A DNA stretch of 54,599 nucleotides, from positions 1 to 54,599 of the IMG/VR virus record IMGVR_UViG_3300032224_000681. One strand, given 5' to 3'. Below the pieces are notes generated by a model. It saw only the letters and a program-made list of their open reading frames with translations, had not been told where the DNA came from and made no database searches. The stretch is from a virus (Duplodnaviria > Caudoviricetes). A program made the translations under genes and the position numbers. Shown one piece after another: positions 11,816 through 48,622 of this stretch; the first letter of the stretch is position 1; every line of letters starts with the position of its first letter.

Positions 11816-13397
11816 AGGCACCCTACTTCCTTATCAACCTGAGGCTGTAGACCGCATGTGCGAGCGCAACAAGATGTTAGTTGCTTATGACCTTGGTCTA
11901 GGAAAGACTGTTATCACCATTGCAGCTATAGAACGGTTGATGGATGAGAACAAAATTACGGAACCAGGTCTTATAATTTGCTTATCCTCATTGAAATATC
12001 AGTGGGCTAATCAGATTGAGAAATTTACAGATGGTACTTCACGAGCTTTGGTTATTGATGGAACGCCAAAGAAAAGAGCATCTCAGTACGCCGAAGCTAT
12101 GGACTGGCGGACTACGGGGGTTGATTACATCATCCTTAACTATGAGCAAGTTGTTAACGACTGGGATTCCATCAAAGATTTGCCACGAGGATTTGTCGTC
12201 CTCGACGAAGCCACAGCCATCAAGTCTTTTAAATCCAAACGCTCCCGAGCAGTAAAGAAACTAATCAATGCTAAATATAGATTTGCACTCACTGGTACTC
12301 CGATTGAGAATGGCAAGCCTGAAGAGCTGTACAGCATTATGCAGTTCGTTGACGCCAGCGTACTTGGTCGGTTTGATATCTTTGACGCTGCTTTTATCGT
12401 AAGAAATTCTTGGGGAGCACCTCAGTACTACCGTAATCTTTCTACACTACATACTAGGATGAAAGATGCTTGCGTACGTAAAGCACAGAAAGACCCAGAC
12501 GTAGCGCCATATCTACCTGACACTATTCACAAAGACCCTGTAAAAATTGTCTTTGATAGAGCATGCTCAAAGTTATATACGCGTATCTCACAGGACCTGT
12601 TAGCGGACCTAGACGAGGCGCAAGATTTGTTTGGTTCTAACTTTAATATCATGGCTCACTACGGTATGGAATCTAACCGTGGTGGACCGCAGGATGAGAT
12701 GCGCGGTAAGATTATGTCTAAGATTGGAGCATTAAAGATGCTCTGTTCTCACCCAGAGTTACTACGTAGTAGCGCTGCTAAGTTTAAACAAATGAATGGA
12801 GAGGGTTCTGCATATGTCACTGAGCTCGTTGATATGGGTCTTCTTGATAATACTGGTAACTCGCCTAAGCTTGACTACCTCATCCAGTACGTTAAAGACT
12901 TTTTGGAACAGAATCAGGAAAACAAAGTAGTTATCTTTGCTACCTACGTTGACATGCTTGACAAAATTGCTGAGGCTTTAGGTCCAGAGCAATGTCGTTT
13001 ATACTCAGGAAAGTTAGATGCTAAAACTAAAGAAGATAACAAAGTTGCTTTTAATACTGACCCTGCTGTTCGTGTTCTTATTTCTTCCGATGCTGGCGGT
13101 TATGGCGTAGACCTACCCGCAGCCAACATGTTGATTAACTATGACCTACCATGGTCATCAGGTACGGCTACCCAACGCAATGGTCGTATCAAACGTGCTT
13201 CTTCAACATGGCCTTCAATAGTAATTCAAGATATAGTTATTGCAGGGTCCATTGAGGAACGTCAATGGGAATCCCTACAACAAAAGAGTTCTATCGCTAA
13301 TGCTATTATTGATGGTGAAGGCGTAGATAATGATGAGACTAAGGTTTCAATGTCTGTAGGTAGTTTAAAAGCTTTCCTACAATCTTCTGACGTTTAA
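11805..13397 (+). CDS. SNF2-family helicase/ATPase
   Basis: LLPYQ, DLGLGKT, VLDEAT, ALTGTPIEN, AGGYGVDL, QRNGRIKR motifs. Confidence 0.92.
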   Translation: MTFKGTLLPYQPEAVDRMCERNKMLVAYDLGLGKTVITIAAIERLMDENKITEPGLIICLSSLKYQWANQIEKFTDGTSRALVIDGTPKKRASQYAEAMDWRTTGVDYIILNYEQVVNDWDSIKDLPRGFVVLDEATAIKSFKSKRSRAVKKLINAKYRFALTGTPIENGKPEELYSIMQFVDASVLGRFDIFDAAFIVRNSWGAPQYYRNLSTLHTRMKDACVRKAQKDPDVAPYLPDTIHKDPVKIVFDRACSKLYTRISQDLLADLDEAQDLFGSNFNIMAHYGMESNRGGPQDEMRGKIMSKIGALKMLCSHPELLRSSAAKFKQMNGEGSAYVTELVDMGLLDNTGNSPKLDYLIQYVKDFLEQNQENKVVIFATYVDMLDKIAEALGPEQCRLYSGKLDAKTKEDNKVAFNTDPAVRVLISSDAGGYGVDLPAANMLINYDLPWSSGTATQRNGRIKRASSTWPSIVIQDIVIAGSIEERQWESLQQKSSIANAIIDGEGVDNDETKVSMSVGSLKAFLQSSDV

Positions 13398-13470
13398 TGC
13401 CCCATAGCTCAGTTGGCAGAGCATCGCACTGTTAATGCGAGTGTCCCTGGTTCGAGTCCAGGTGGGGCAG
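13398..13470 (+). tRNA. tRNA-Asn(GTT), no encoded CCA
   Basis: Acceptor TGCCCCA/TGGGGCA; anticodon arm TCGCA-CTGTTAA-TGCGA; TTCGAGT T-loop. Confidence 0.95.
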
Positions 13471-13474
13471 CGAT

Positions 13475-13550
13475 GCGGTTGTAGCTCAGTTGGTAGAGCG
13501 GCACCTTGCCAAGGTGCAGGTCGCGAGTTCGAGCCTCGTCAACCGCTCCA
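13475..13550 (+). tRNA. tRNA-Gly(GCC) with CCA
   Basis: Acceptor GCGGTTG/CAACCGC; anticodon arm GCACC-TTGCCAA-GGTGC. Confidence 0.95.
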
Positions 13551-13551
13551 A

Positions 13552-13623
13552 TCTCCCTTCGTCTAATTGGCAAGACTGCGGATTCTGGTTCCGCCTATCG
13601 AGGTTCGAGTCCTTGGGGGAGAG
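13552..13623 (+). tRNA. tRNA-Gln(CTG), no encoded CCA
   Basis: Acceptor TCTCCCT/GGGGAGA; anticodon arm GCGGA-TTCTGGT-TCCGC. Confidence 0.93.
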
Positions 13624-13644
13624 CTTTTAGTCTATAATTATCTA

Positions 13645-18043: not shown

Positions 18044-18398
18044 TTGGTGGGCAACTAAACTAGGCACACCTGCAACACCGCAGGCTGCCCCAACTCAACC
18101 AACATATGTAGCACCGCAACCCGCAACGTATGTTCAACCTTCACAGCCACAGTATCCACCTACACAGCAAGCAACACCGCAAGCGGAACGTTGCCCTGGG
18201 TGTGGAAGCGGTAACTATGGTGGTTCATCACCAGAAGCACGTAAGCGTTGTTACGACTGTGGATACCCAATTCAACAATCAGGTTCAGGAGTAGGTAAAG
18301 GTATTGTAGGAGGTCAGTCTTCTGGCGGACCTGCTCAACCTGCAAAGCAAGTGCAATCAGGCGGATTTAACCCACAGACAATCATTGGACACATTTAA
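18033..18398 (+). CDS. Pro/Gln-rich zinc-ribbon protein
   Basis: CPGC...CYDC. Confidence 0.7.
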   Translation: MSSNWWATKLGTPATPQAAPTQPTYVAPQPATYVQPSQPQYPPTQQATPQAERCPGCGSGNYGGSSPEARKRCYDCGYPIQQSGSGVGKGIVGGQSSGGPAQPAKQVQSGGFNPQTIIGHI

Positions 18399-19462
18399 TG
18401 AACGCAGAACTAACTAAACTAATAACAAAGATTAATAAGAAATACGGTTCTGACACTATAGTTATTGGCTCTGATATTACTGAAGGCATTGGGCGTTTAA
18501 CCACTGGCTCAGTATCTTTAGATGTAGCACTAGGTGGTGGATGGCCTACTAATCAGTGGCATGAGATTATTGGTGAGGCTAGCAACGGAAAGACTGCTAT
18601 TGCACTTAAGACAATTGCTGCTAATCAAAAGAAAGACCCTAACTTTACTGCGGTATGGATTGCTGCAGAACAGTGGGTTCCAGAGTATGCAGAGCTTTGC
18701 GGTGTAGATGTATCCCGTTTGTATGTAGTTTCTACCAACATCATGGAGGAAGCCTATGAAACCGTCATTGAGATTACTGGCTCTAAAACGGTCGATTGTA
18801 TTGTTATTGATTCACTACCTGCCTTGGTCCCTTCAGCAGAAGACGATAAGGAGATGGAGGAATCTACTGTAGGACGCTCAGCGCTTCTTACTAACAAGTT
18901 CTTCCGTAAGGTAGGCAAGGCGTCTAAGCGTTCCCTAATTGAGGCTGAACGTCCATTTATTGGCATCCTAATCAACCAGTGGCGCTCAAAGATTGGCGTT
19001 ATGTATGGAGACCCACGCACTACCCCAGGTGGTCTAGGCAAGGATTATGCTTTCTTCACACGTATGGAAGTACGTCGTGATAGTGAGTGGATTGAGGTTG
19101 GTACTGGACAGGATAAGAAGCGCATTGGTCAGACTATTAAAGCCAGAGTTATTAAAAATAAGTCAGCCCCACCATCACAAGTTGCTACCTTTGACTTCTA
19201 TTTTGCAAGTGGCGGAGACGTACCTGCTGGAGAGATTGACTTTGGTAAAGAGATTATGGCTATGGGTATCCTTAACAAGGTTATTACCCGAGCTGGTGCT
19301 TACTATCGCTATGAGTATCAAGGCGAGACTCGACAGTGGATGGGTCAGGATGCTATGCTTGCCTCTATACGGGAAGAGATAGACCTGAAAGAAACTTTAG
19401 AACGCGACGTGCTGGACTCTATTAAAGCAGGGTCTAAGTTTGTAGCATCCGATGAGGACTAA
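18398..19462 (+). CDS. recA: RecA/UvsX recombinase
   Basis: TGSVSLDVALGGG, GEASNGKT, IVIDS, INQWRSKIGVMYGDPRTTPGG. Confidence 0.95.
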   Translation: MNAELTKLITKINKKYGSDTIVIGSDITEGIGRLTTGSVSLDVALGGGWPTNQWHEIIGEASNGKTAIALKTIAANQKKDPNFTAVWIAAEQWVPEYAELCGVDVSRLYVVSTNIMEEAYETVIEITGSKTVDCIVIDSLPALVPSAEDDKEMEESTVGRSALLTNKFFRKVGKASKRSLIEAERPFIGILINQWRSKIGVMYGDPRTTPGGLGKDYAFFTRMEVRRDSEWIEVGTGQDKKRIGQTIKARVIKNKSAPPSQVATFDFYFASGGDVPAGEIDFGKEIMAMGILNKVITRAGAYYRYEYQGETRQWMGQDAMLASIREEIDLKETLERDVLDSIKAGSKFVASDED

Positions 19463-31624: not shown

Positions 31625-33079
31625 ATGCGGATTATATATTTGGGATGTGAGATTCCAAGTAACCGCACCCTGCTAGAGTCGACTACAGCTAACCATGTGG
31701 GCCTGAGCTTCTATGGCCTGGTAAAGCGCGGATTACCTAAAACCAAAGAATATCTATTAGAGAATTACTTTTCTAAAGATTCCTATATTTATGTATACCC
31801 AGGGCTACCCAAAAACATCAACCTGTCCAGGGTAGAGCTCGAGGAGTTCGCTGCCGCCTATGAGCACATGATTGCCATGAACATAGACCGCATATCTATA
31901 TTTGCTGAGATTAATTCCGCATTTGTTGACCCAGCCTTTGTGGAGGAGCAGCGCCGCACAGCTTGGGCCCAGGTGCCGCCAAGTAAGTTTTTGCCCGTTT
32001 GGAATCCTGAATCTAAGTTAGAAACCCTAGAAAAAATGGGAGATGACTACCTAGACATAGGCATACCAGGCGATGTGCTGGACGTAGAGACCAGACTGGC
32101 GTCAGTTACAAGGCGTATGGCTAAGCGCGATGGAAGTCGCTTCCATGCGCTAGGCTGTGCCAAGCCAGACAACCTACGCTCTGTGCCCTTTGAGACTGCT
32201 AGTACCCTCTCATGGCTATCGCCAATGATGCATGGGGAAACTATCGTCTGGGATGGTACAAGGCTCATGCGCTATCCCAAGCGCATGAAAGACCAAGCCC
32301 GCTCACGCTATAACCATGTGTATGAGAAGGCTGGCATAGACGCAGATAAAATTGCTGAAGATGACCCACAAGAAGTGTGTCGCCTTGCAGTGTGGTCATA
32401 CGAACAGTTCGAGGTTAGGATAAACAAAGTGGGCGATTCTTATCATGATAATAACGATGAAACTAACATGGTAGATAGTGCGGAAGTAGCCACTACCAAT
32501 GCTGATAATAAGGGTATCCAAATGCGGAAACTTAACCCACGAAATCCAGAAGAAATGGGAAATTTACCCGTCTTTGGATACGAGGTAAAAACCGAAGTTG
32601 ATGCTGATGGAGTCATATCAGATACCACTCATGTGTCTTCACAAGCAACTTCAATTAGAGCATGCGATACATGCTTTATTGCTTCTAACTGCCCTGCTTA
32701 CAAGCCTCAATCTGCCTGTGCTTTTAAGTTACCTATCGAGGTAAAGACTAAAGACCAACTAAAGAGTCTTATCAATTCAATTATAGAAATGCAAGGACAA
32801 AGGGTCGCTTTTATGCGTTTTGCTGAAGAAATGAACGGTGGATACGCTGACCCTAACGTTTCTCAAGAGATTGACCGCCTGTTCAAACTGATTAAAACAA
32901 CCAAAGAATTGGATGACTCACGTGAGTTTATTCGCATGACTGTGGAGCGCCAAGGCTCTTCTGGTGTGCTATCTTCTATCTTCGGAGACAAGGCTCAAGC
33001 CTTAAAAGAACTCCCTGAAGGTGGGTTAAATGAAATCCAGACAACCAAAATAATCAAGGATTTAACCGAAGATAATTAA
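31625..33079 (+). CDS. tRNA-guanine-transglycosylase-like TIM-barrel protein with C-terminal Cys cluster
   Basis: FLPVW, FHALGC, PFETASTLSW resemble the TGT-like H.LG...S.DS.SW pattern; CDTC..C..C cluster. Confidence 0.5.
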   Translation: MRIIYLGCEIPSNRTLLESTTANHVGLSFYGLVKRGLPKTKEYLLENYFSKDSYIYVYPGLPKNINLSRVELEEFAAAYEHMIAMNIDRISIFAEINSAFVDPAFVEEQRRTAWAQVPPSKFLPVWNPESKLETLEKMGDDYLDIGIPGDVLDVETRLASVTRRMAKRDGSRFHALGCAKPDNLRSVPFETASTLSWLSPMMHGETIVWDGTRLMRYPKRMKDQARSRYNHVYEKAGIDADKIAEDDPQEVCRLAVWSYEQFEVRINKVGDSYHDNNDETNMVDSAEVATTNADNKGIQMRKLNPRNPEEMGNLPVFGYEVKTEVDADGVISDTTHVSSQATSIRACDTCFIASNCPAYKPQSACAFKLPIEVKTKDQLKSLINSIIEMQGQRVAFMRFAEEMNGGYADPNVSQEIDRLFKLIKTTKELDDSREFIRMTVERQGSSGVLSSIFGDKAQALKELPEGGLNEIQTTKIIKDLTEDN

Positions 33080-41438: not shown

Positions 41439-41458
41439 TGTTCACCTAGTTATCCACA
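41439..41458 (-). promoter_or_regulatory. Element copy 1: DnaA box (41450-41458) with TGTTCAC flank
   Basis: TGTTCACCTAGTTATCCACA; associated -10 unclear. Confidence 0.8.
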
Positions 41459-41594
41459 ACCCCCCTCTCTCTACGGCTGAACAACCTATGAACAACTTAT
41501 CATCATAATAAGCCTATCCCATAGCCGTACATCTGGTCGTATCCCTACACACCTCATAAGCCTATTAGACAGTAGCCGAGGTGGCTCTCTCATC

Positions 41595-41857
41595 TCTCAT
41601 TATCATGGCTCTCTCTGCTAGTCAAATCTTTGTTAACCGAGTTATCCACAGGCGCGGCGGGTTTGTGTTGGGCAATAGCCTACGGCTTATTGCCCAACAA
41701 TGAAATGAGCCCTTTTTTAATATAAAAAAGGCTCAAAAAGGGTGGGTTAGTGAATAATGTATAATTGAATACATTATGAACGATGGGTGGGCCAACACAA
41801 ACATCCAGGCCCGCGGCATGAGAAAGCCCCTTGCTAGTCCAAATAGCAAGGGGCTTT
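41595..41857 (-). repeat. Element copy 2: promoter, DnaA box (41642-41650), multi-branched inverted repeat (41661-41802), terminator (41822-41857)
   Basis: TTGACT -35; TGTTAACCGAGTTATCCACAGG; GTTTGTGTTGG/CCAACACAAAC enclosing three hairpins. Confidence 0.85.
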
Positions 41858-41911
41858 GGTGGTATCACCCGAAGGGGACGGAGATACTACAACCTAGTAC
41901 CACCACTAGGA

Positions 41912-42316
41912 TTATGATAGACCCATTTTCTTCTGTATTTCTATTGCTAGGTCTAAATCTATGGGTTTGATAGTCTTATCTGAGTAGTCCTCGCCGTACT
42001 GATAGGTCTTGTTATCTTGTACGCTTATTAGATACATAGCACCTAGGCACTCCATACTCCAATTAGCGTCGTTCCAATCCCTATCCTCAGGTGTGAGGTT
42101 CATGTATTCGCGGATTAGCACTCCGTCGGGGTCTTTCTCCTCGTCCCACTCTGCGTCCTCGTCCCATGAGAAGTACAACGCATGAGCCTCTGCCATGTGT
42201 TCTGCCTCATCTGATGAGTTAGCCGTGCCGTGTGCGATACAGGAATCGCAATACCATATCCACCCACTAATAGTGCTACTACATGTGTTTGGGGTAATCA
42301 GGTCTTTAATTTGCAT
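41912..42316 (-). CDS. Hypothetical protein
   Basis: AGGAG RBS; CDSC..H. Confidence 0.7.
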   Translation of the reverse strand: MQIKDLITPNTCSSTISGWIWYCDSCIAHGTANSSDEAEHMAEAHALYFSWDEDAEWDEEKDPDGVLIREYMNLTPEDRDWNDANWSMECLGAMYLISVQDNKTYQYGEDYSDKTIKPIDLDLAIEIQKKMGLS

Positions 42317-42485
42317 TGGTGGTCTCCTCTACCTCTGTACATTGGGCTATCTTACTAATATCAAAACCATACTGTTCTAGTAGGTTCTCAATCGCGTATT
42401 CCACCGCGTCGTCCTCATCTACGGCGTTAATAGTCGTATGAAGTGTGAAGTAGTCAGCCACAAAGGTTACGTTCCAGTATTTCAT
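42306..42485 (-). CDS. Hypothetical acidic protein
   Basis: Start reassigned to MKYWNV (ATGA coupling). Confidence 0.65.
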   Translation of the reverse strand: MKYWNVTFVADYFTLHTTINAVDEDDAVEYAIENLLEQYGFDISKIAQCTEVEETTNAN

Positions 42486-42706
42486 TGTGCCACTTCTAAC
42501 ATCATATATGACCAACCCTCATTGGATTTCTCCATTACGGGCTTAATGCTATCTAATAGGGTTGATTTACCCGCCTCTACCATAGCCTCATTGGGGATAC
42601 CGCTAGTTACATACTCTAGATACTTGTGTTCCTCAATACATACATTGAACTGTACTGTGAAGGGTACTTCTACCAGTTTTACGCCGTTAATAACCTTAGT
42701 CGTCAT
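42482..42706 (-). CDS. Hypothetical protein
   Basis: Coupled ORF. Confidence 0.65.
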   Translation of the reverse strand: MTTKVINGVKLVEVPFTVQFNVCIEEHKYLEYVTSGIPNEAMVEAGKSTLLDSIKPVMEKSNEGWSYMMLEVAQ

Positions 42707-43208
42707 TTTTCACCATTTGTTCTAGTAAATCCTCTAGCCCTGCGTCTAGTAGAAAGATTGGGTCGAACTTCTGTGCCTTTGCCTCTACCGAAGCGTTAGG
42801 ACGGAATATGAGTGGTAGGTCGTCAGGTACTTCTACGTCCATAACTGCCAACATCTTACCTAACCCACCTAATAGCATTAGCATTGGTGTTAGAGCACCG
42901 CTAGCCCATGCGATATGGATTGCTAGGGTTATTGCACCCAAGTCGTCGTCATTGACCTGTTCGTCAGCGTCATGCTTGTTTCTGCAAGACTCGAAGCCTG
43001 TATTGGCGAGCGCGTTAATAAGGTTACCACGGAAGTCGTCGTCCTCTCTCATAGCCTGTGCCATGATAGCGGTCTTTAGATTGCCGTCTGATAAGCCTAG
43101 TGTGCCGTTAGGAAACATAGGCTCGTAACTCTCGTCCTCAAAATCAGGAAGTAGTTCGATTGTCGTCATTAACTCTGTAAAACGCGCTTTGCGTTCTGTG
43201 CTGTCCAT
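42696..43208 (-). CDS. Hypothetical acidic protein
   Basis: Start reassigned to MDSTERK after AAGGAG; the listed upstream start lies inside the promoter. Confidence 0.75.
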   Translation of the reverse strand: MDSTERKARFTELMTTIELLPDFEDESYEPMFPNGTLGLSDGNLKTAIMAQAMREDDDFRGNLINALANTGFESCRNKHDADEQVNDDDLGAITLAIHIAWASGALTPMLMLLGGLGKMLAVMDVEVPDDLPLIFRPNASVEAKAQKFDPIFLLDAGLEDLLEQMVKNDD

Positions 43209-43236
43209 AGTATCTCCTTTACTAAGTAACGGCGTA

Positions 43237-43428
43237 ACTATAATCCTCTCCCCCTCTCTCACCTAATATCTGTTCATGTAGTTATCCACAGGTGTTTGTG
43301 TTGGGGCTATTAGATGGCGCTTTGATAGATAAATCTATCAAAGCAATAAAAGCTTTAAATAGCCATCTAATAGCCCCAACACAAACTTTTACGGCATGAA
43401 AAAACCCCCGCCTTGCGGCGGGGGCTTC
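43237..43428 (-). repeat. Element copy 3: -10 TATAGT, DnaA box (43282-43290), 25-bp inverted repeat (43294-43318/43362-43386), terminator
   Basis: GTTTGTGTTGGGGCTATTAGATGGC and its exact reverse complement; stem CCCCCGCC/GGCGGGGG. Confidence 0.9.
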
Positions 43429-43444
43429 CTAGTAGGGGTATCTA

Positions 43445-43930
43445 CTAAGCCTCGTAAATCTCGACCTCGAGGTTATCATTTAGGAAATCATCTAAATCCC
43501 ATGTACCCACACGGAATGATGCGGAGTCATTTAAGACCGATAGGTCACCGCGAACTTCGATATCGTTGAAAGAGATATCGTCTAGAACCTGTTGCTTTGC
43601 GGCTTCTTCATCATCAGCCTCGATGTCATCAAGTTCAAGTACAACTTCACCCAAGAGGCTAACCTCTGCGCGAAATCGTGTGATAAGGTCGCTAGCCTCG
43701 GCTGTCTCCCAACCGCATGCAATCGCAATCTTATTAAATAGGTCAAGCGCGTCTTCTTCGGTCATTGAGGTACGAGCCTCGACTTTGAAGATATTAAGGA
43801 CATCTGCGCGGTTTTCTGCGCGGAGTGAATTACGTGCCATTTCTATAGCACGTGAGCGTTCTTCCTCTATGCGGGGAGCAATGTCGCTCTCCTCATAGTA
43901 GGTTATGTCGTTGAGTGTGAACATACCCAT
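43445..43930 (-). CDS. Hypothetical acidic protein
   Basis: Single-gene unit between two element copies. Confidence 0.75.
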   Translation of the reverse strand: MGMFTLNDITYYEESDIAPRIEEERSRAIEMARNSLRAENRADVLNIFKVEARTSMTEEDALDLFNKIAIACGWETAEASDLITRFRAEVSLLGEVVLELDDIEADDEEAAKQQVLDDISFNDIEVRGDLSVLNDSASFRVGTWDLDDFLNDNLEVEIYEA

Positions 43931-43969
43931 TCTTTCTCTTTTATAAGCACCCCTTGTGCTTATGGGATA

Positions 43970-44147
43970 AGAGTATTGGTTACTCGTCAGTAACTAAAAC
44001 TCTTGTTTACCTAGTTATCCACAGCCCCGTGTTTGTGTTGGGCTTGGGTATAAATAAGAGAGGCATTAATACATAGCTTTTAAATATACCCATCCCCAAG
44101 CCCAACACAAACAAATTAGCCCCCCGACTCCACTTCGGGGGGCTAAT
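43970..44147 (-). repeat. Element copy 4: -10 TACTCT, DnaA box (44015-44023), 19-bp inverted repeat (44030-44048/44095-44113), terminator
   Basis: TGTTTGTGTTGGGCTTGGG and its exact reverse complement; ATTAGCCCCCCGA/TCGGGGGGCTAAT. Confidence 0.9.
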
Positions 44148-44210
44148 CTGAGAACGGACTGTATGTCAACACAGTAAGCCTTTTATACTCATGCTCAGGA
44201 GTTAATAGTC

Positions 44211-44690
44211 TTACCAAGACGACTGATAGTAGAAACTCAAGTCGTCGATATTAGGCAAGGCAAGTATGCGGTCAATCTGTTTGATAGTGCTTTTTAGCCC
44301 GTTCCAATACCACTCGTCAATATCTGTAGTACCAAAGAAAAACCCTTCCATAGGCTTGATTAGCAGAGGATTTTTATGAAAGATAGCCTGACGGCATGCT
44401 TCACGCAATTCCTCTAACTTAGCCTTAGAAACGTAGTAGTTACCGCAATCGTCGTTGCCACCCTGAACGTTCTGTACGAACCAACCATGAACGGCGTTGA
44501 CCTTACGCCAGTAGGCGCAGGTAACTGAAACCTCTGCCCCATAGATGTCTGTATGGACTGCTTCTAAGCCAGCCTCTGTAACAACCTTATCAAATTGTTC
44601 CATAGTAACCCAAGCGTCGCTATCGCCCTTTGCGTTGTAGTCAATCTTGTTGATGTAAGTTGTTGCCCTTAGATACATATCTAGACCCAT
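44211..44690 (-). CDS. Conserved phage protein (MGLDMYL...YWRK.N..HGWF...YYQSSW type), function unknown
   Basis: Recognisable motif family; AGGGG RBS. Confidence 0.75.
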   Translation of the reverse strand: MGLDMYLRATTYINKIDYNAKGDSDAWVTMEQFDKVVTEAGLEAVHTDIYGAEVSVTCAYWRKVNAVHGWFVQNVQGGNDDCGNYYVSKAKLEELREACRQAIFHKNPLLIKPMEGFFFGTTDIDEWYWNGLKSTIKQIDRILALPNIDDLSFYYQSSW

Positions 44691-44737
44691 GTGATACCCC
44701 TTTGGTAGTTAAATCTCTCGCTCGGTGCGAGCCCCCA

Positions 44738-44920
44738 AGTATAATCACACATCTAATTCTCTTACCATATTCTGTTAACCCAGTTATCCACAGGCGAATG
44801 TTTGTGTTGGGTTGTTTGGATAATGGCTGATTTTGAGAGAATAAGCTTTCCCTATTTATTAACTACTAGCCAAACAACCCAACACAAACAAAAAAGCTCC
44901 GCACCTTTCGGTGCGGAGCC
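44738..44920 (-). repeat. Element copy 5: -10 TATACT, DnaA box (44784-44792), 21-bp inverted repeat (44799-44819/44870-44890), terminator
   Basis: TGTTTGTGTTGGGTTGTTTGG and its exact reverse complement; GCTCCGCACC/GGTGCGGAGC. Confidence 0.9.
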
Positions 44921-44935
44921 TTCTTGCTAGGCTTG

Positions 44936-45943
44936 CTAGACCCCAGCGTACTCGCGGACGGCGCGTAGGATACGAGCCTTCTCAGCGTTCACAGTAGGGT
45001 CGAAACCAGCAGCAGCGCCAACGATAGCCTCGTTATTGCTTGTACGACCAGCGCGGAAATAATCCAAGCGCTCAGTCAGTGCGTTAAGGGCGCCCCAGTA
45101 ATTGCCCTTGATATTGGTCTGGGTAGGGGACTGGAAATAAATATCATCCAGTAGGTCGCGCTTGGCTTGCCACTTGGTAAGTGACTGAGGCGCTGATTGT
45201 GCGTCAGGCTTAGGATAAATTGCGTTCACCAATTTATCCCATGCAACTGAGTCCATAGAGGACTGGAAAAGGTCTTTCGCAATGGTCTCGAAAGTGTCCA
45301 TGTGATTGAAAGTAAGCCCAAGAACGCGACGAGCCTCAGCGGTACGCTCGCCAGCCTTGAGAGTATGGCGCAACTTGAAAGATTGCTTAACGCCCTTGAG
45401 CGCCATATTGAGAGTGTTTTGGCAGACTACGCGAACTGGCGTAATCGACGCGGTAACACTGGCAGACCCGTCGTGTGAAGATGAGACGAGCAGATATGTA
45501 ATGGTCTTATCGTTCGCACCCTTAGGGTCGAGGATAAACTCACGAGGTACGACGAGGGAGCCGAAAACTACCTTGCCGTTTTTAATAGAGCCAGCAGATT
45601 CCCATGAGGCACCGCCGTCGAGGATATTGTCCCCGAACGCGAATAAATCCTCGTTTTGGAATACGCGATAGCGCTTACCAACGACCGCAAGGACATCCTT
45701 GCCAGCGTCGAATGGATTGGTGCGTGTGACCATGAATAGGTCAGTGGATGAGCGGTAATCCGCTGGATACTGGACAGGCTCGAGGTCTACACCCCAGCCA
45801 GCCAATTTGGCACTTTCCAGCATGTCGCTAGTAGAGACATGCTCGTCAATGCCGAAAGTACGATTAGCCAACTTATGCCATGCGGGCGCACCGCGCAAAG
45901 CAAAAGCCACCTCACCGTTTTGAACCTCGAGCGCATGAGCCAC
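44936..45943 (-). CDS. DUF932-family phage/plasmid protein
   Basis: MAH..AWH.L, VGKRY..QNEDLF, SAGSI, SSHDGS, TPVRVVCQNTL, WGALNALTE. Confidence 0.88.
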   Translation of the reverse strand: MAHALEVQNGEVAFALRGAPAWHKLANRTFGIDEHVSTSDMLESAKLAGWGVDLEPVQYPADYRSSTDLFMVTRTNPFDAGKDVLAVVGKRYRVFQNEDLFAFGDNILDGGASWESAGSIKNGKVVFGSLVVPREFILDPKGANDKTITYLLVSSSHDGSASVTASITPVRVVCQNTLNMALKGVKQSFKLRHTLKAGERTAEARRVLGLTFNHMDTFETIAKDLFQSSMDSVAWDKLVNAIYPKPDAQSAPQSLTKWQAKRDLLDDIYFQSPTQTNIKGNYWGALNALTERLDYFRAGRTSNNEAIVGAAAGFDPTVNAEKARILRAVREYAGV

Positions 45944-45990
45944 GAGAGTCCCCCTTCGGTAAATAACGCGAGACCTTCTCGCGTGTGCAT

Positions 45991-46175
45991 ATCTTAACCC
46001 TATCTCTCGTCTCTTATAATAATCTTGTTAACCTACTTATCCACAGGGCGCCGATTGTTTGTGTTGGGCTTGTTGCTAGTAGTTAAAGAAAGAAAGAAAG
46101 CTATTCCACTCAACATCAACCATTAACAACAAGCCCAACACAAACAAATAGCCCCAGCCGATTGGCTGGGGCTAT
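45991..46175 (-). repeat. Element copy 6: -10 TAAGAT, DnaA box (46037-46045), 21-bp inverted repeat (46055-46075/46127-46147), terminator
   Basis: TTGTTTGTGTTGGGCTTGTTG and its exact reverse complement; ATAGCCCCAGCC/GGCTGGGGCTAT. Confidence 0.9.
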
Positions 46176-46202
46176 GTTTTTTACACGGGGGGTGTAAAAC
46201 CC

Positions 46203-46604
46203 TTAGACGAGAGGCTCGTCAATTTTGAACAGGTCGCGTAGCGCCTGAAGTTGCTTTTGGTACTTGCGGGCTTGCGCCTTGTAGTTATCGCGTTCAGCGA
46301 TTAGGTCGGCTATCATTTTATCGACAGTACCGATTGCGCCTTCTTGCTTAGCCTTTTTGGTCTTATACTTACCGCGTGTCTTAGGCTTAGCATTAGCAGG
46401 ATTGTGTGTGCCTACGTGAATAGACATTTGTGGACGTGAGAGCGTTTGCTCACCACATGTGAGGCAACCATAACTGACTAGAATGTTGTTGCTTTCTTCT
46501 AGCCATGTTAATTCAACCATATTGTTGAAGAATGTACCTGCTCGCATTGGATTAGGTACAGTATTGCGCTCGCATAGAATTGCGTTTTTGCGTGTGAATT
46601 GCAT
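46203..46604 (-). CDS. C2H2-like zinc-finger plus coiled-coil protein
   Basis: CLTC-x12-HVGTH, basic linker, C-terminal heptads; start reassigned to MQFTRK. Confidence 0.7.
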   Translation of the reverse strand: MQFTRKNAILCERNTVPNPMRAGTFFNNMVELTWLEESNNILVSYGCLTCGEQTLSRPQMSIHVGTHNPANAKPKTRGKYKTKKAKQEGAIGTVDKMIADLIAERDNYKAQARKYQKQLQALRDLFKIDEPLV

Positions 46605-46709
46605 ATTATCACCCCCCTGTTGCACTAGAGTTTCTCCCTTAGGAGTTCGACGTATCTCGTCATGGTAGTTCTCCTATCTATCTAGATGAGCCGTGTTGCT
46701 CATGTGAGT

Positions 46710-46884
46710 ACTATAACCATAAATCCTAAATCTTATTCCCCCCTTGTTCATCTAGTTATCCACAGGCAGGAGTTTGTGTTGGGGCGTGTGTATATATAAA
46801 GAAGCTTTTAAGCCATACATACATACACACCCACACGCCCCAACACAAACAAGAAAGCCCCCTGTGACGGCAGGGGGCTTCTTG
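46710..46884 (-). repeat. Element copy 7: -10 TATAGT, DnaA box (46756-46764), 19-bp inverted repeat (46772-46790/46832-46850), terminator
   Basis: GTTTGTGTTGGGGCGTGTG and its exact reverse complement; AAGCCCCCTG/CAGGGGGCTT. Confidence 0.9.
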
Positions 46885-46896
46885 CAGGGGGTTTAG

Positions 46897-47199
46897 TTAT
46901 GCGGCTTGCCTTACGGCAAGCGCACGACGGATATAATTCTGTTGCTTGCTTGTAGTAGGGCTGAACTTCTGTTCTACTACATACCAGCCATTTTCCCCGA
47001 ACCATGCGATAGGCGTATTGTATGAGAAGACAATATAGGCGCCTTGCTTGAACTCGTTTGATAGTCTTATGAATTCATCGCCTAGACGTCCCGCGCCTGG
47101 TGTGTAATTCATATACTTACCGCTTAGAGATGAAGCCTCGAATGGCATGCGGTTGATAATGCGCTCGATTGCTTCTTTCTGATTAACGTGCATTTTCAT
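46897..47199 (-). CDS. Conserved phage hypothetical protein (SY.TPIA...S.TTSK type)
   Basis: YIVFSYNTPIAW..KFSPTTSKQQ; start reassigned to MKMHVN. Confidence 0.7.
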   Translation of the reverse strand: MKMHVNQKEAIERIINRMPFEASSLSGKYMNYTPGAGRLGDEFIRLSNEFKQGAYIVFSYNTPIAWFGENGWYVVEQKFSPTTSKQQNYIRRALAVRQAA

Positions 47200-47341
47200 A
47201 GTCGTAACCTTTCTGACTGTCCTCGTAACCCTCACTGTAACCCTTGAACCAGTAGGCGCGAGAGGTGAAGAAGAATACCGCTCCACCGATGATGATATCG
47301 ACGAGAAGATTGAAGCCGTTATAGAAGATGATTTCATGCAT
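47183..47341 (-). CDS. Small membrane protein
   Basis: One hydrophobic segment then GYSEGY..GY repeats; GGAG RBS. Confidence 0.6.
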   Translation of the reverse strand: MHEIIFYNGFNLLVDIIIGGAVFFFTSRAYWFKGYSEGYEDSQKGYDYENAR

Positions 47342-47513
47342 TGACTCGCTCCGCTTCCTTGTTAGCACACTCGTAGCAGATTTGTTCAATTCTATCCATG
47401 CAACCTAATAGAAACGCGTCTACGCCACTATGCACGATGTTTTCTGTTGTGCCACATATTGAACACTTGTTCATTTGATACCCCTATCTGTGAGCCCCTT
47501 GCTCACTGTCTGT

Positions 47514-47601
47514 AATTTATAGTTTTGTGTCGGTCTGTGCAACTATCTGTTAACTTAGTTATCCACAGGGTTTTAATGTGGGGGCAGGTTGCCCTGCCCC
47601 C
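47514..47601 (-). promoter_or_regulatory. Element copy 8: TTGCAC-N17-TAAATT promoter, DnaA box (47559-47567), hairpin; no long inverted repeat
   Basis: TGTTAACTTAGTTATCCACAGG; GGGGGCAGG/CCTGCCCCC. Confidence 0.8.
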
Positions 47602-47608
47602 TTGCGGG

Positions 47609-47797
47609 CTACGCCGTAATTTCTGCGATAGCCTTATTGATTGCCTTTTCTACCGCGTCGCTTGTAATTGTTTCGATAACCTTTTGGGAAACCGCATCTA
47701 CACGCGCCTGTAGGTCTGCGTTATCTAAAACGCCCTTAGAGATTGCTAGCGCTGAAAGTATCATCGCCCAATCCTCAGGTGTAAATTTATCCATATA
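47609..47797 (-). CDS. Small helical hypothetical protein
   Basis: GGGGTG RBS; start uncertain within a few codons; single-gene unit. Confidence 0.6.
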   Translation of the reverse strand, partial: YMDKFTPEDWAMILSALAISKGVLDNADLQARVDAVSQKVIETITSDAVEKAINKAIAEITA

Positions 47798-47846
47798 TAT
47801 CACCCCCTTGCCGTCATCTAGTAGGTCATTATTAAGTTATGAGAGA

Positions 47847-47959
47847 AGACTATTTGAAAGGCTTATTAGATGCAAACGCCCGTTAACCTAGTTATCCACA
47901 GGCTCTCTTGTTCTTGGGGTTCTTTTGCCAGTCCCTATGCCGTTCTAATGTTTGTGTTG
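47847..47959 (-). promoter_or_regulatory. Element copy 9: TTGCAT-N17-TAGTCT promoter, DnaA box (47892-47900), orphan half arm TGTTTGTGTTG (47949-47959)
   Basis: CGTTAACCTAGTTATCCACAGG. Confidence 0.8.
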
Positions 47960-48026
47960 ACCCACCCTCCCCATACCCCTACGGGGAATCGAGAGAGAGG
48001 CTGGGGGGGAAGTCCCAGCCTCTGCT

Positions 48027-48389
48027 CTACTTGATTACAGTAACCATATCTTTCCACGTGTAGTTTATGGTTAAAGCCTCGTGCCATTCGCACCACCATT
48101 CGCCGTTATATTCGGCGCCACACCATTCAGGTTCATCGCAGGTAACCCATACCACGATATCGTCTGACCGCTTGTACTTGCGCCATTCATCGTCGGGTGC
48201 ATGTAGTGCAGGTGCTGCCTTGCAACCTACCTTGATTACATCGTCAGTAATGCCGTAGTTGCGTGGGTTGTCCTGTATATCCAACAGGAGCGCGTCTACT
48301 GACTCGTACAACATGTTGTCATAGTCGGTGACGATTATGTCCGCGTTATATATCTTGCCCTTGATAGTGGGCGCTGTCTCGTATGCCAT
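48027..48389 (-). CDS. Hypothetical protein
   Basis: C..C..C..H pattern; TAATG coupling to a small upstream ORF. Confidence 0.65.
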   Translation of the reverse strand: MAYETAPTIKGKIYNADIIVTDYDNMLYESVDALLLDIQDNPRNYGITDDVIKVGCKAAPALHAPDDEWRKYKRSDDIVVWVTCDEPEWCGAEYNGEWWCEWHEALTINYTWKDMVTVIK

Positions 48390-48566
48390 TATTCGCCACG
48401 TCCCGTCAATAGTAGGAAAGCCTTACCTAGTTTGCTATTGCGATAGCACTCGCGCTTAGCGCATGTATCGCATAGGTGAAAGCGAGTTACTAGATGATAT
48501 TCGATTGCTCGTATCATGTTATCCCCCATGCTATTCGGTGAGCCCCTTGCTCACCTTGTATTGCAT

Positions 48567-48622
48567 ACACTATGCCATAGCCCTATTACATGCAAACGTT
48601 TGTTAACCTGGTTATCCACAGG
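48567..48622 (-). promoter_or_regulatory. Element copy 10: TTGCAT-N17-TAGTGT promoter and DnaA box (48612-48620)
   Basis: TGTTAACCTGGTTATCCACAGG; last copy before the strand switch. Confidence 0.82.

Follow-up and report, generated by a model that had tools for sequence, protein, structure and literature searches.

The attC sites of integrons carry R''/R' core boxes with the consensus RYYYAAC ... GTTRRRY, and their stem is imperfect, with extrahelical bases and a central spacer that stays unpaired. The REP, BIME and Correia families are short extragenic palindromes found after genes, in which constant inverted motifs are combined with variable linkers. It is also established, from the genetics of E. 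coli and phage T4, that template switching at a quasipalindrome makes an imperfect inverted repeat perfect by copying one of its arms; to our knowledge, this correction is known as a source of mutational hotspots, and not as a standing mode of evolution of a conserved element family. In T4-type phages, the PeSL (promoter-early stem-loop) combines a host-type early promoter with a stem-loop that acts as terminator, and lies in a plastic part of the genome (Arbiol et al. 2010, PMC2839356); insertions, deletions and replacements between related phages are bordered by this motif and ascribed to homologous recombination (PMC2839356; Comeau et al. 2014, PMC4122927). Another PeSL feature is the mini-circle, which arises when neighbouring motifs exchange. 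The repeats described here share features with each of these systems. They lie in a virus (Duplodnaviria; Caudoviricetes), in the IMG/VR record IMGVR_UViG_3300032224_000681, a stretch of 54,599 bp, estimated 57% complete, which was analysed over its whole length and is called the window below. Six inverted repeats, the elements, are found there between 41661 and 46850, all on the minus strand, which is the gene strand of this region, and every one of them starts with GTTTGTGTTGG and ends with CCAACACAAAC. Our preferred reading, to which we give a probability of roughly 45%, is that they are DNA-folding, protein-recognised boundary elements of early-gene cassettes, which double as exchange junctions.

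Comparison with Described Systems

The likeness to PeSLs lies in repeated terminator/promoter junctions set around small early genes, most of them unknown, where the genome is plastic (PMC2839356, PMC4122927). As in the PeSLs (PMC2839356), indels and replacements between related phages are bordered by the junctions. By contrast, a PeSL uses its stem-loop as the terminator, and this stem-loop overlaps or adjoins the promoter (PMC2839356), whereas in the present phage, which is not T4-like, a normal terminator and a promoter-associated motif have between them a separate palindrome, 59-142 nt long, whose 11-nt ends are invariant, whose perfect stem is unique and whose interior is structured. Taken as wholes, the junctions seem to act as PeSLs do, and the palindrome is an extra module that is absent from PeSLs as these sources describe them.

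With attC sites the locus shares the presence of one structure-conserved, sequence-variable site at the 3' side of each cassette, whose outer boxes are conserved, whose inner sequence varies while its pairing is kept, whose apex is variable and in some cases branched, and whose length range resembles the one usually quoted for attC; in both cases this implies that a folded DNA form matters. On the other hand, the ends are unrelated, only GTT/AAC triplets recurring in opposite polarity (GTT...AAC outside here); the stems of the elements are perfect and have no extrahelical bases (1271/1271 pairs); the cassettes carry their own promoters and terminators; and a tyrosine recombinase (Phage_integrase, PF00589) was found in none of five records, namely the window and four complete relatives, by a search that was positive in 14/14 control genomes. 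REP, BIME and Correia repeats are comparable as extragenic palindromic repeats placed after genes, with constant inverted motifs, and as possible protein-binding or topological sites. The elements differ from them in being phage-borne and confined to one array, with 0 matches in 185,579 bacterial and archaeal species genomes, and in having their own stem and interior in each copy; no target-site duplication was seen, the flanks of the six copies showing no direct repeat, and no interior is shared among copies apart from orthologues and a few paralogue pairs. Resolvase (PF00239), Y1_Tnp (PF01797) and rve (PF00665) gave no match in the same five records, in searches with positive controls that did not extend to other transposase families. 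The first-pass annotation of this DNA had recommended a search for a recombinase or HUH nuclease, and neither was encountered in the window or in the four complete relatives; its option of a MITE-like (miniature inverted-repeat transposable element) origin is unlikely in view of the missing target-site duplication and shared interior, the positional orthologues within one array and the lack of matches in bacterial genomes.

Template switching at quasipalindromes yields simultaneous complementary changes and symmetric indels, as seen in the elements. No Rfam family was matched at its gathering threshold, the best score, 41 bits against a threshold of 90, being to a microRNA-precursor model, and the leader models were weak too. 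Membership in the attC, MITE/REP and known RNA groups fails on defining features, and no known repeat family fits the element. A text search of the literature for the arm 11-mer returned unrelated matches only, and a literature search on phage intergenic inverted repeats, cruciforms and early promoters gave nothing comparable.

Structure and Pairing of the Elements

Five of the six elements have perfect stems whose inner arms are mutually unrelated: 43294-43386 (93 nt; 25 bp, inner arm GGCTATTAGATGGC), 44031-44112 (82 nt; 18 bp, GCTTGGG), 44800-44889 (90 nt; 20 bp, GTTGTTTGG), 46057-46145 (89 nt; 19 bp, GCTTGTTG) and 46772-46850 (79 nt; 19 bp, GGCGTGTG). Positions, constant ends and inner arms agree with those originally reported, while the spans of 84, 92 and 93 bp reported for the second to fourth of these result from counting one or two additional T-A pairs at the flanks of each. 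The 43294 element also holds a 17-nt unpaired 5' segment and an inner 11-bp hairpin. The sixth element (41661-41802, 142 nt), described as branched, is the last of the array; the complementarity between its arms is limited to 11 nt, and its interior contains two CCCACCC motifs, two internal hairpins and a local TTGG-X-loop-X'-CCAA hairpin overlapping the 3' arm. In its DNA minimum-energy fold three local hairpins form instead, one of which uses the CCAA of the 3' arm. Positional orthologues of this element, 105-142 nt long, are present in L010, L011, L014, L022, L023, L025, L027, L029, L032 and L035.

With one mismatch or none, the arm 11-mer matches the window 16 times, 13 of them exactly, against 1.03 matches expected, and 0/100 shuffles reach 16. 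When folded as single-stranded DNA, all six elements gave z-scores from -6.8 to -13.9, with 0/200 shuffles as stable. An AT-rich centre as a nucleus for cruciform extrusion was considered and rejected, since the interiors, at 57.8% AT, show little or no enrichment over the window (~39-49% GC). The interior of the 44800 element is an inverted copy of that of the 46057 element (reverse score 46-52, forward 11-13); this is the only real case of flip/flop orientation, of the sort found in genomes that replicate by hairpins, three other reverse-orientation interior matches having been discounted because the orientation of the locus could not be set. In the clade of G001 the elements (L009, L011) form complete three-way junctions, with an outer stem, two perfect inner hairpins, one of which begins with an A tract, and almost no unpaired bases. 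This A-B-B'-C-C'-A' layout resembles parvovirus terminal hairpins.

The outer stems of 73 unique elements contain 1271 pairs, all of them Watson-Crick, with no G-T and no bulge. Their lengths are bimodal, at 8-12 bp (n = 25) and 18-26 bp (n = 48), and the 48 long elements have 36 distinct inner arms. At positions 12-18, 336/336 cells are paired, against a mean of 160.6 and a maximum of 193 in a swapped-partner null. The so-called constant arm co-varies too, T8>C and T9>C each being accompanied by A>G, and GTGCTGG..CCAGCAC and GTGTCGG..CCGACAC variants occur. In an alignment of eight sequences from one orthologous position, that of the 43294 element (alignment A1), RNAalifold predicted 35 pairs, 13 with double changes and none with one-sided changes; the outer helix of 25 pairs was 100% paired, with double changes in 6 pairs, and the inner helix 2 had double changes in 7/10 pairs. 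The observed score was reached by 0/500 shuffles, and slid controls paired in 33-45% of cells. A set enlarged to 158 loci and 184 unique elements, from which metagenome loci above 52% GC were dropped, contains a single in-register stem mismatch in at most two elements, both doubtful members. The covariation statistics across homologues that had been proposed as a check place the pairing far beyond chance within the genome, between orthologues and inside the constant arm.

Pattern of Change in the Arms

The two arms of an element evolve in concert. Three pairs of elements have identical interiors and differ, each pair, by exactly one compensated double change. Indels are symmetric as well, with 3 bp in both arms in alignment A1, and 2 nt in both arms on a 98%-identical interior, and no two long elements of one locus share a variable arm (0/187 pairs). 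Independent mutation followed by selection would be expected to make single changes far commoner than double ones and to leave visible intermediates, and neither is seen. Since double changes and symmetric indels occur, some of them on identical interiors, the arms appear to be copied from each other, and the simplest account is that an arm serves as the template for its partner, through template switching or through repair while the element is folded. Such copying would require that the arms meet in DNA. Because there is no G-T in 1271 pairs and no one-sided change, and because double changes and symmetric indels are found on identical or nearly identical interiors, pairing in DNA seems a better reading than pairing in RNA. 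If templated copying accounts for the covariation, then the covariation is no evidence of selection on each pair. The original statement that selection acts on pairing, probably of DNA, is retained for DNA pairing, in view of the missing G-T pairs and one-sided changes, whereas selection is not needed, templated copying being sufficient.

On the other hand, the sequence of the constant arm hardly moves. In 38 pairs of elements with an interior identity of at least 95%, divergence was 0.036 in the interior, 0.019 in the constant arm and 0.049 in the variable stem; the corresponding values were 0.079, 0.022 and 0.057 in 21 pairs at 90-95% identity, and 0.158, 0.020 and 0.242 in 32 pairs at 80-90%. 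With divergence near 2% in the arm throughout, against a rise from 5% to 24% in the variable stem, and with lone arms conserved, the constant 11-mer is, on comparative grounds, under sequence selection. The arm had been taken for a protein-binding or recombination site, and its divergence of ~2% and its occurrence alone after terminators are those of a sequence-specific site. Each element probably carries position-specific information as well, because the interiors of orthologues equal or exceed the adjoining genes in conservation and the inner hairpins co-vary.

Position at Gene Junctions

Along the gene strand, the junctions follow the order stop codon, intrinsic terminator, element, promoter-associated motif, hexamer and next gene. 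The terminator lies about 40-50 nt from the stop codon, and its T tract often enters the first bases of the element. In the window, a terminator scan called three minus-strand terminators which hold the first bases of an element inside their T tract, at 46854-46881, belonging to the upstream gene and running into the 46772 element, at 46148-46175 and at 44112-44150; the tails of these called terminators are CTTGTTTGTG, TTGTTTGTGT and TTTGTGTTGG. For the hairpin at 44896-44919 the scan scored the plus strand only, and the minus strand was read from the sequence, while the terminators at about 43401-43431 and 41823-41857 come from an inverted-repeat search and reading of the sequence.

The promoter-associated motif is the 20-mer TGTGGATAACTnnnTnAACA, which has 11 matches in the window, 10 of them on the minus strand, against 0.01 expected. 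Copies stand beside the elements at 46745-46764 (minus strand, beside the 46772 element), 46026-46045, 44773-44792, 44004-44023, 43271-43290 and 41631-41650, and further copies, at 41439-41458, 47548-47567, 47881-47900 and 48601-48620, have no element. The distance between element and TGTGGATAACTnnnTnAACA is 3-11 nt in the window, and between element and promoter motif 3-36 nt across clades. A TAnnnT hexamer can be read in the sequence 28-29 nt beyond TGTGGATAACTnnnTnAACA; the sigma-70 consensus scores of the spacers, 7.6 and 7.3 on the two strands, are weak and give no promoter direction. These sequence signals support the earlier description of each element as placed after a terminator and before a promoter, and predicted on this basis to lie outside transcripts.

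The terminator / element / operator-like repeats / promoter architecture is common to all clades. The downstream repeats vary by clade, being single TGTGGATAA boxes, inverted pairs of the box, CGTTAT repeats or TTCCTGAGAG repeats; another clade has three tandem TGTGGATAA boxes 14 bp apart, followed by TTGACA-17-TAnnnT. There are also clades without any TGTGGATAA box, and the 11-nt arm is unchanged there. In the window, the 10 minus-strand copies of the promoter-associated motif (41439-48620) contain TGTGGATAA, the exact complement of TTATCCACA, which we take to be an E. coli-type DnaA box. This suggests that host DnaA, or a protein of the same specificity, may regulate the early promoters or be titrated by them.

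Some arms occur without a partner. One, with a single mismatch, lies at 47950-47960 on the plus strand, beside a CCCACCC-type motif and between a terminator and the promoter motif. This half-element is conserved in G003, and the opposite half-type is found in G003 and G004, partnerless arms being located around record positions 13011 and 13793 of L041 (G003) and around 86543 of L040 (G004). The lone arms are fused to CCCACCC/CCCTCCC-type motifs and a small CCCCTACGGGG hairpin, and are kept between genomes while the adjoining terminator stems co-vary. Their CCCACCC motifs recur in the long last element of each array.

Cassette Mosaicism

The cassettes separated by the elements span 41912-47337 on the minus strand. 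They comprise the genes at 46897-47337 (146 aa, basic), 46203-46625 (140 aa, basic), 44936-45943 (DUF932, 335 aa), 44211-44690 (159 aa) and 43445-43930 (161 aa, acidic), and three open reading frames at 41912-43262 (188, 74 and 134 aa); after the long last element follow an AAA_5 ATPase and a VWA protein.

Cassette maps were drawn for 17 array stretches from about 13 phage records, and they are mosaics on a conserved backbone that consists of DUF932, the 161-aa gene, the 188-aa group, the long element, AAA_5 and VWA. The 140-aa gene is placed before DUF932 in three records and after it in three others, and elsewhere a 131-aa gene takes its place or stands with it; only two arrays carry the 159-aa gene, of which a homologue lies outside the array in G001; and G003 lacks the 161-aa gene. 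In G004, the 161-aa gene has on its two sides direct paralogue elements whose stems differ. Nearly all junctions between units are occupied by an element, including those where gene content differs, and a few units consist of two to four genes with no element between them. The window differs from L023 by one element plus the 159-aa cassette, with breaks at the element edges.

The identity to the closest relative is 0.80, 0.86, 0.92 (coding part 0.95-0.98), 0.78 and 0.67 for successive cassettes, and 0.99, 0.89, 0.77, 0.94 and 0.97 for the elements; the orthologous elements at 0.99, 0.89, 0.94 and 0.97 are thus better conserved than the genes next to them (0.67-0.92). A table at the level of open reading frames, in which free end gaps had distorted some values (for example 1.00 and 0.88), was set aside in favour of these segment values and of a three-taxon analysis. 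When three genomes are aligned, support passes from one pairing of genomes to another at the 46772 and 43294 elements. Exchange is, as judged from these alignments, frequent and often ends at elements, though not only there. The 159-aa cassette (44113-44799) is ~95-98% identical to L047, the flanking cassettes 78-86%, which looks like a recent transfer of a single cassette.

Distribution among Phage Genomes

The window encodes baseplate proteins, a DnaB-like helicase, a family-A DNA polymerase, a RecA/UvsX-like protein, a class II ribonucleotide reductase and a queuine tRNA-ribosyltransferase-like protein. Gene content and the size of five complete or near-complete relatives fit its assignment as part of a ~95 kb myovirus of an uncultured freshwater family. 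No cultured relative was found by megablast; by blastn, the window had two matches only, of 76-121 nt, to one unannotated record. The closest proteins are those of Streptomyces phages (DNA polymerase 41%, DUF932 50%).

The arm-gap-arm pattern was found at 31 loci in viral contigs and at least 120 loci in metagenome contigs. The five relatives used for the whole-genome view, 99-100% complete by CheckV, each carry paired elements in one array of 3-5, plus some lone arms. In L056, which is related at a greater distance (its DUF932 is 62% identical), the elements have an arm that has diverged and is GTTTGTTGAGTTGG-like. The degenerate pattern also matches GC-rich contigs (L102 and others above 52% GC) with REP-like repeats, GTTTGTGCCGGATG...CATCCGGCACAAA, which seem unrelated to the phage family.

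Proposed Role of the Elements and Alternatives

From the pattern of change in the arms we strongly infer that the elements fold in vivo. The arms would pair in DNA, as a single-stranded hairpin during replication or recombination or as a cruciform, and differences between them would be erased by templated copying, so that the stems stay Watson-Crick while their sequence drifts freely. The invariant 11 bp at the base (GTTTGTGTTGG / CCAACACAAAC) would be the functional sequence, which a putative conserved phage or host protein might recognise as an inverted pair or as a folded base, and the bound or folded element would separate neighbouring transcription units. Being the sole sequence common to all junctions across clades, the element could also be the site where cassettes are exchanged, gained, lost and reordered; this would take place without a site-specific recombinase, by the general recombination system of the phage. 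A RecA/UvsX-like gene is present at 18398-19462. Protein binding, insulation and a causal role in exchange are the more conjectural parts of this proposal.

If this is true, the elements would be a clear example from nature of a conserved family in which copying between the arms, rather than selection on each pair, maintains perfect stems; they would offer a sequence-only signature of DNA folding in vivo and a warning against taking covariation as proof of a selected structure. They would also punctuate, in a new way, the plastic early region in which anti-defence and takeover genes turn over, in a freshwater phage family that is widespread and uncultured. The 11-mer would then be a handle for finding the reader protein, and would allow one to test whether dedicated boundary elements keep tandem strong units independent and exchangeable.

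Several points weigh against a DNA-folding boundary and exchange element. A protein that binds the arm was not found: no Pfam family was matched at E<=0.001 among the small array proteins, and the two basic array proteins are absent from several arrays that keep elements. Uncompensated arm changes occur in 12/184 elements, all 12 with 7-8 bp stems (the 'short' type). The pair statistics count related sequences and not independent events, and the pairs used for divergence, which are not independent either, were picked by interior identity, so that interior divergence was capped. The conserved interiors are unexplained by a generic boundary or exchange site, and hint at a position-specific regulatory site or at RNA. 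Moreover, 6/15 DUF932-bearing loci have no perfect repeat of at least 14 bp, and distant DUF932-carrying relatives show plain terminator-operator-promoter junctions; as these do without it, the element is not needed for cassette expression as such. As regards exchange, the three-genome signal switches inside two genes as well, so that exchange is not confined to the elements; breaks at elements are in part expected, because viable gene indels must break in intergenic DNA; and 11 or 12 bp is short for homologous recombination.

An RNA element is a rather unlikely but serious alternative. The repeats would serve RNase III-type processing or retroregulation in read-through transcripts, or would belong to opposite-strand small RNAs ended by a bidirectional terminator, with stems kept perfect by copying at the DNA level and with the conserved interiors as functional RNA parts. 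Stem lengths cluster at 18-26 bp, about two helical turns, which is the stem size that RNase III needs. The conservation of orthologous interiors, equal to or better than that of adjacent genes, and the co-varying inner hairpins (7/10 pairs of helix 2 with double changes) would be accounted for, and the nearly equal hexamer scores on the two spacer strands (7.6 vs 7.3) would allow antisense transcription towards the element. However, each element follows an intrinsic terminator and precedes a promoter, all Rfam matches stay below threshold, and there are 0 G-U in 1271 outer-stem pairs and 0 one-sided changes among orthologues, although the absence of G-U is less decisive against RNA, because DNA-level copying would erase a G-U signature. 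The sense strand folds more stably in 29/46 oriented elements (less stably in 10, with 7 ties); this bias was judged uninformative as evidence for RNA, because G and T are enriched on the sense strand throughout the minus-strand block, whose G>C and T>A skew can explain the bias. Metatranscriptome contigs from three runs, representing relatives at 85-95% identity, cover genes and none spans an element, but they are unstranded and the DNA contigs of run X2 break there too.

A purely regulatory or topological site is about as doubtful as an RNA element. Two inverted 11-bp operators, 57-120 bp apart, would be bound upstream of the early promoters (about -65 to -160) by a regulator, nucleoid protein or topoisomerase, for activation, early shut-off or relief of torsional stress between tandem units; the palindromy would be a by-product of templated correction, and exchange would be incidental. 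The combination of a constant arm with a variable stem is well suited to this, as are the lone arms conserved at other terminator-promoter junctions, the fixed position relative to the promoter motif (3-36 nt), the clade-specific operator-like repeats directly downstream of the element, and the retention of the arm in clades that replaced the promoter motif. Left unexplained are the narrow stem lengths, the three-way-junction forms of L009 and L011 and the conserved interiors, and no candidate regulator emerged from the small array proteins, which have no Pfam match at E<=0.001 and of which the basic ones are missing from several element-bearing arrays.

Somewhat less probable again is a phage cassette system that is integron-like but mechanistically distinct, in which the folded sites are substrates of a dedicated, so far unrecognised recombination or nicking activity. 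This activity would insert, excise and reorder early genes, probably for anti-defence or host takeover, and the folding would drive the concerted evolution of the arms.

A selfish MITE- or REP-like element that spread into safe sites after terminators, with a transposase acting in trans, is very improbable. The terminal inverted repeats do have constant ends, often extendable to TG...CA, they are placed directly after terminators, and they are confined to one phage lineage and absent from more distant relatives; against this, there is no target-site duplication, interiors are not shared, the copies are positional orthologues under purifying selection in one array per genome, and neither a Y1, rve, serine or tyrosine recombinase in the five records nor any match in the 185,579 bacterial and archaeal species genomes was found.

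Slightly less credible still is a replication or entry signal (single-stranded initiation or priming sites, origins with a DnaA-box-like motif, or entry pause signals with the long last element as a stop), since, although a perfect TTATCCACA complement stands beside every element in the clade of the window and the last element of each array is distinct, conserved and larger in what is the early block, several clades keep elements without the box, a stretch of 6 kb would have no need of four to six origins or pause sites, the array is not tied to a genome end, contig ends being assembly ends, and GC skew, rejected as an origin marker, follows the gene strand only.

Array Proteins and Other Features of the Window

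The minus-strand gene block of the window spans ~35.6 to 48.4 kb. The small array proteins were searched against Pfam and PHROGs and, beyond DUF932, AAA_5, VWA and unnamed PHROGs, gave no match at E<=0.001 and none that was credible at E<=0.5. None of the papers listed for DUF932 seems to deal with its function. Three array proteins encoded on the minus strand (43445-43930, 42696-43262 and 41912-42316) are very acidic, with isoelectric points (pI) of 4.05-4.25, and the 161-aa one has 41 Asp+Glu; early proteins that are acidic and of such size frequently mimic DNA. The proteins encoded at 46897-47337 (pI 10.3) and 46203-46625 (pI 9.5) are basic.

Outside the array, the 484-aa protein at 31625-33079 (plus strand) matches a queuine tRNA-ribosyltransferase PHROG (E 4e-54); in phages, such genes can mark 7-deazaguanine DNA modification. 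Three tRNA genes (Asn-GTT, Gly-GCC and Gln-CTG) are clustered at 13398-13624 on the plus strand, directly after an SNF2-type helicase gene.

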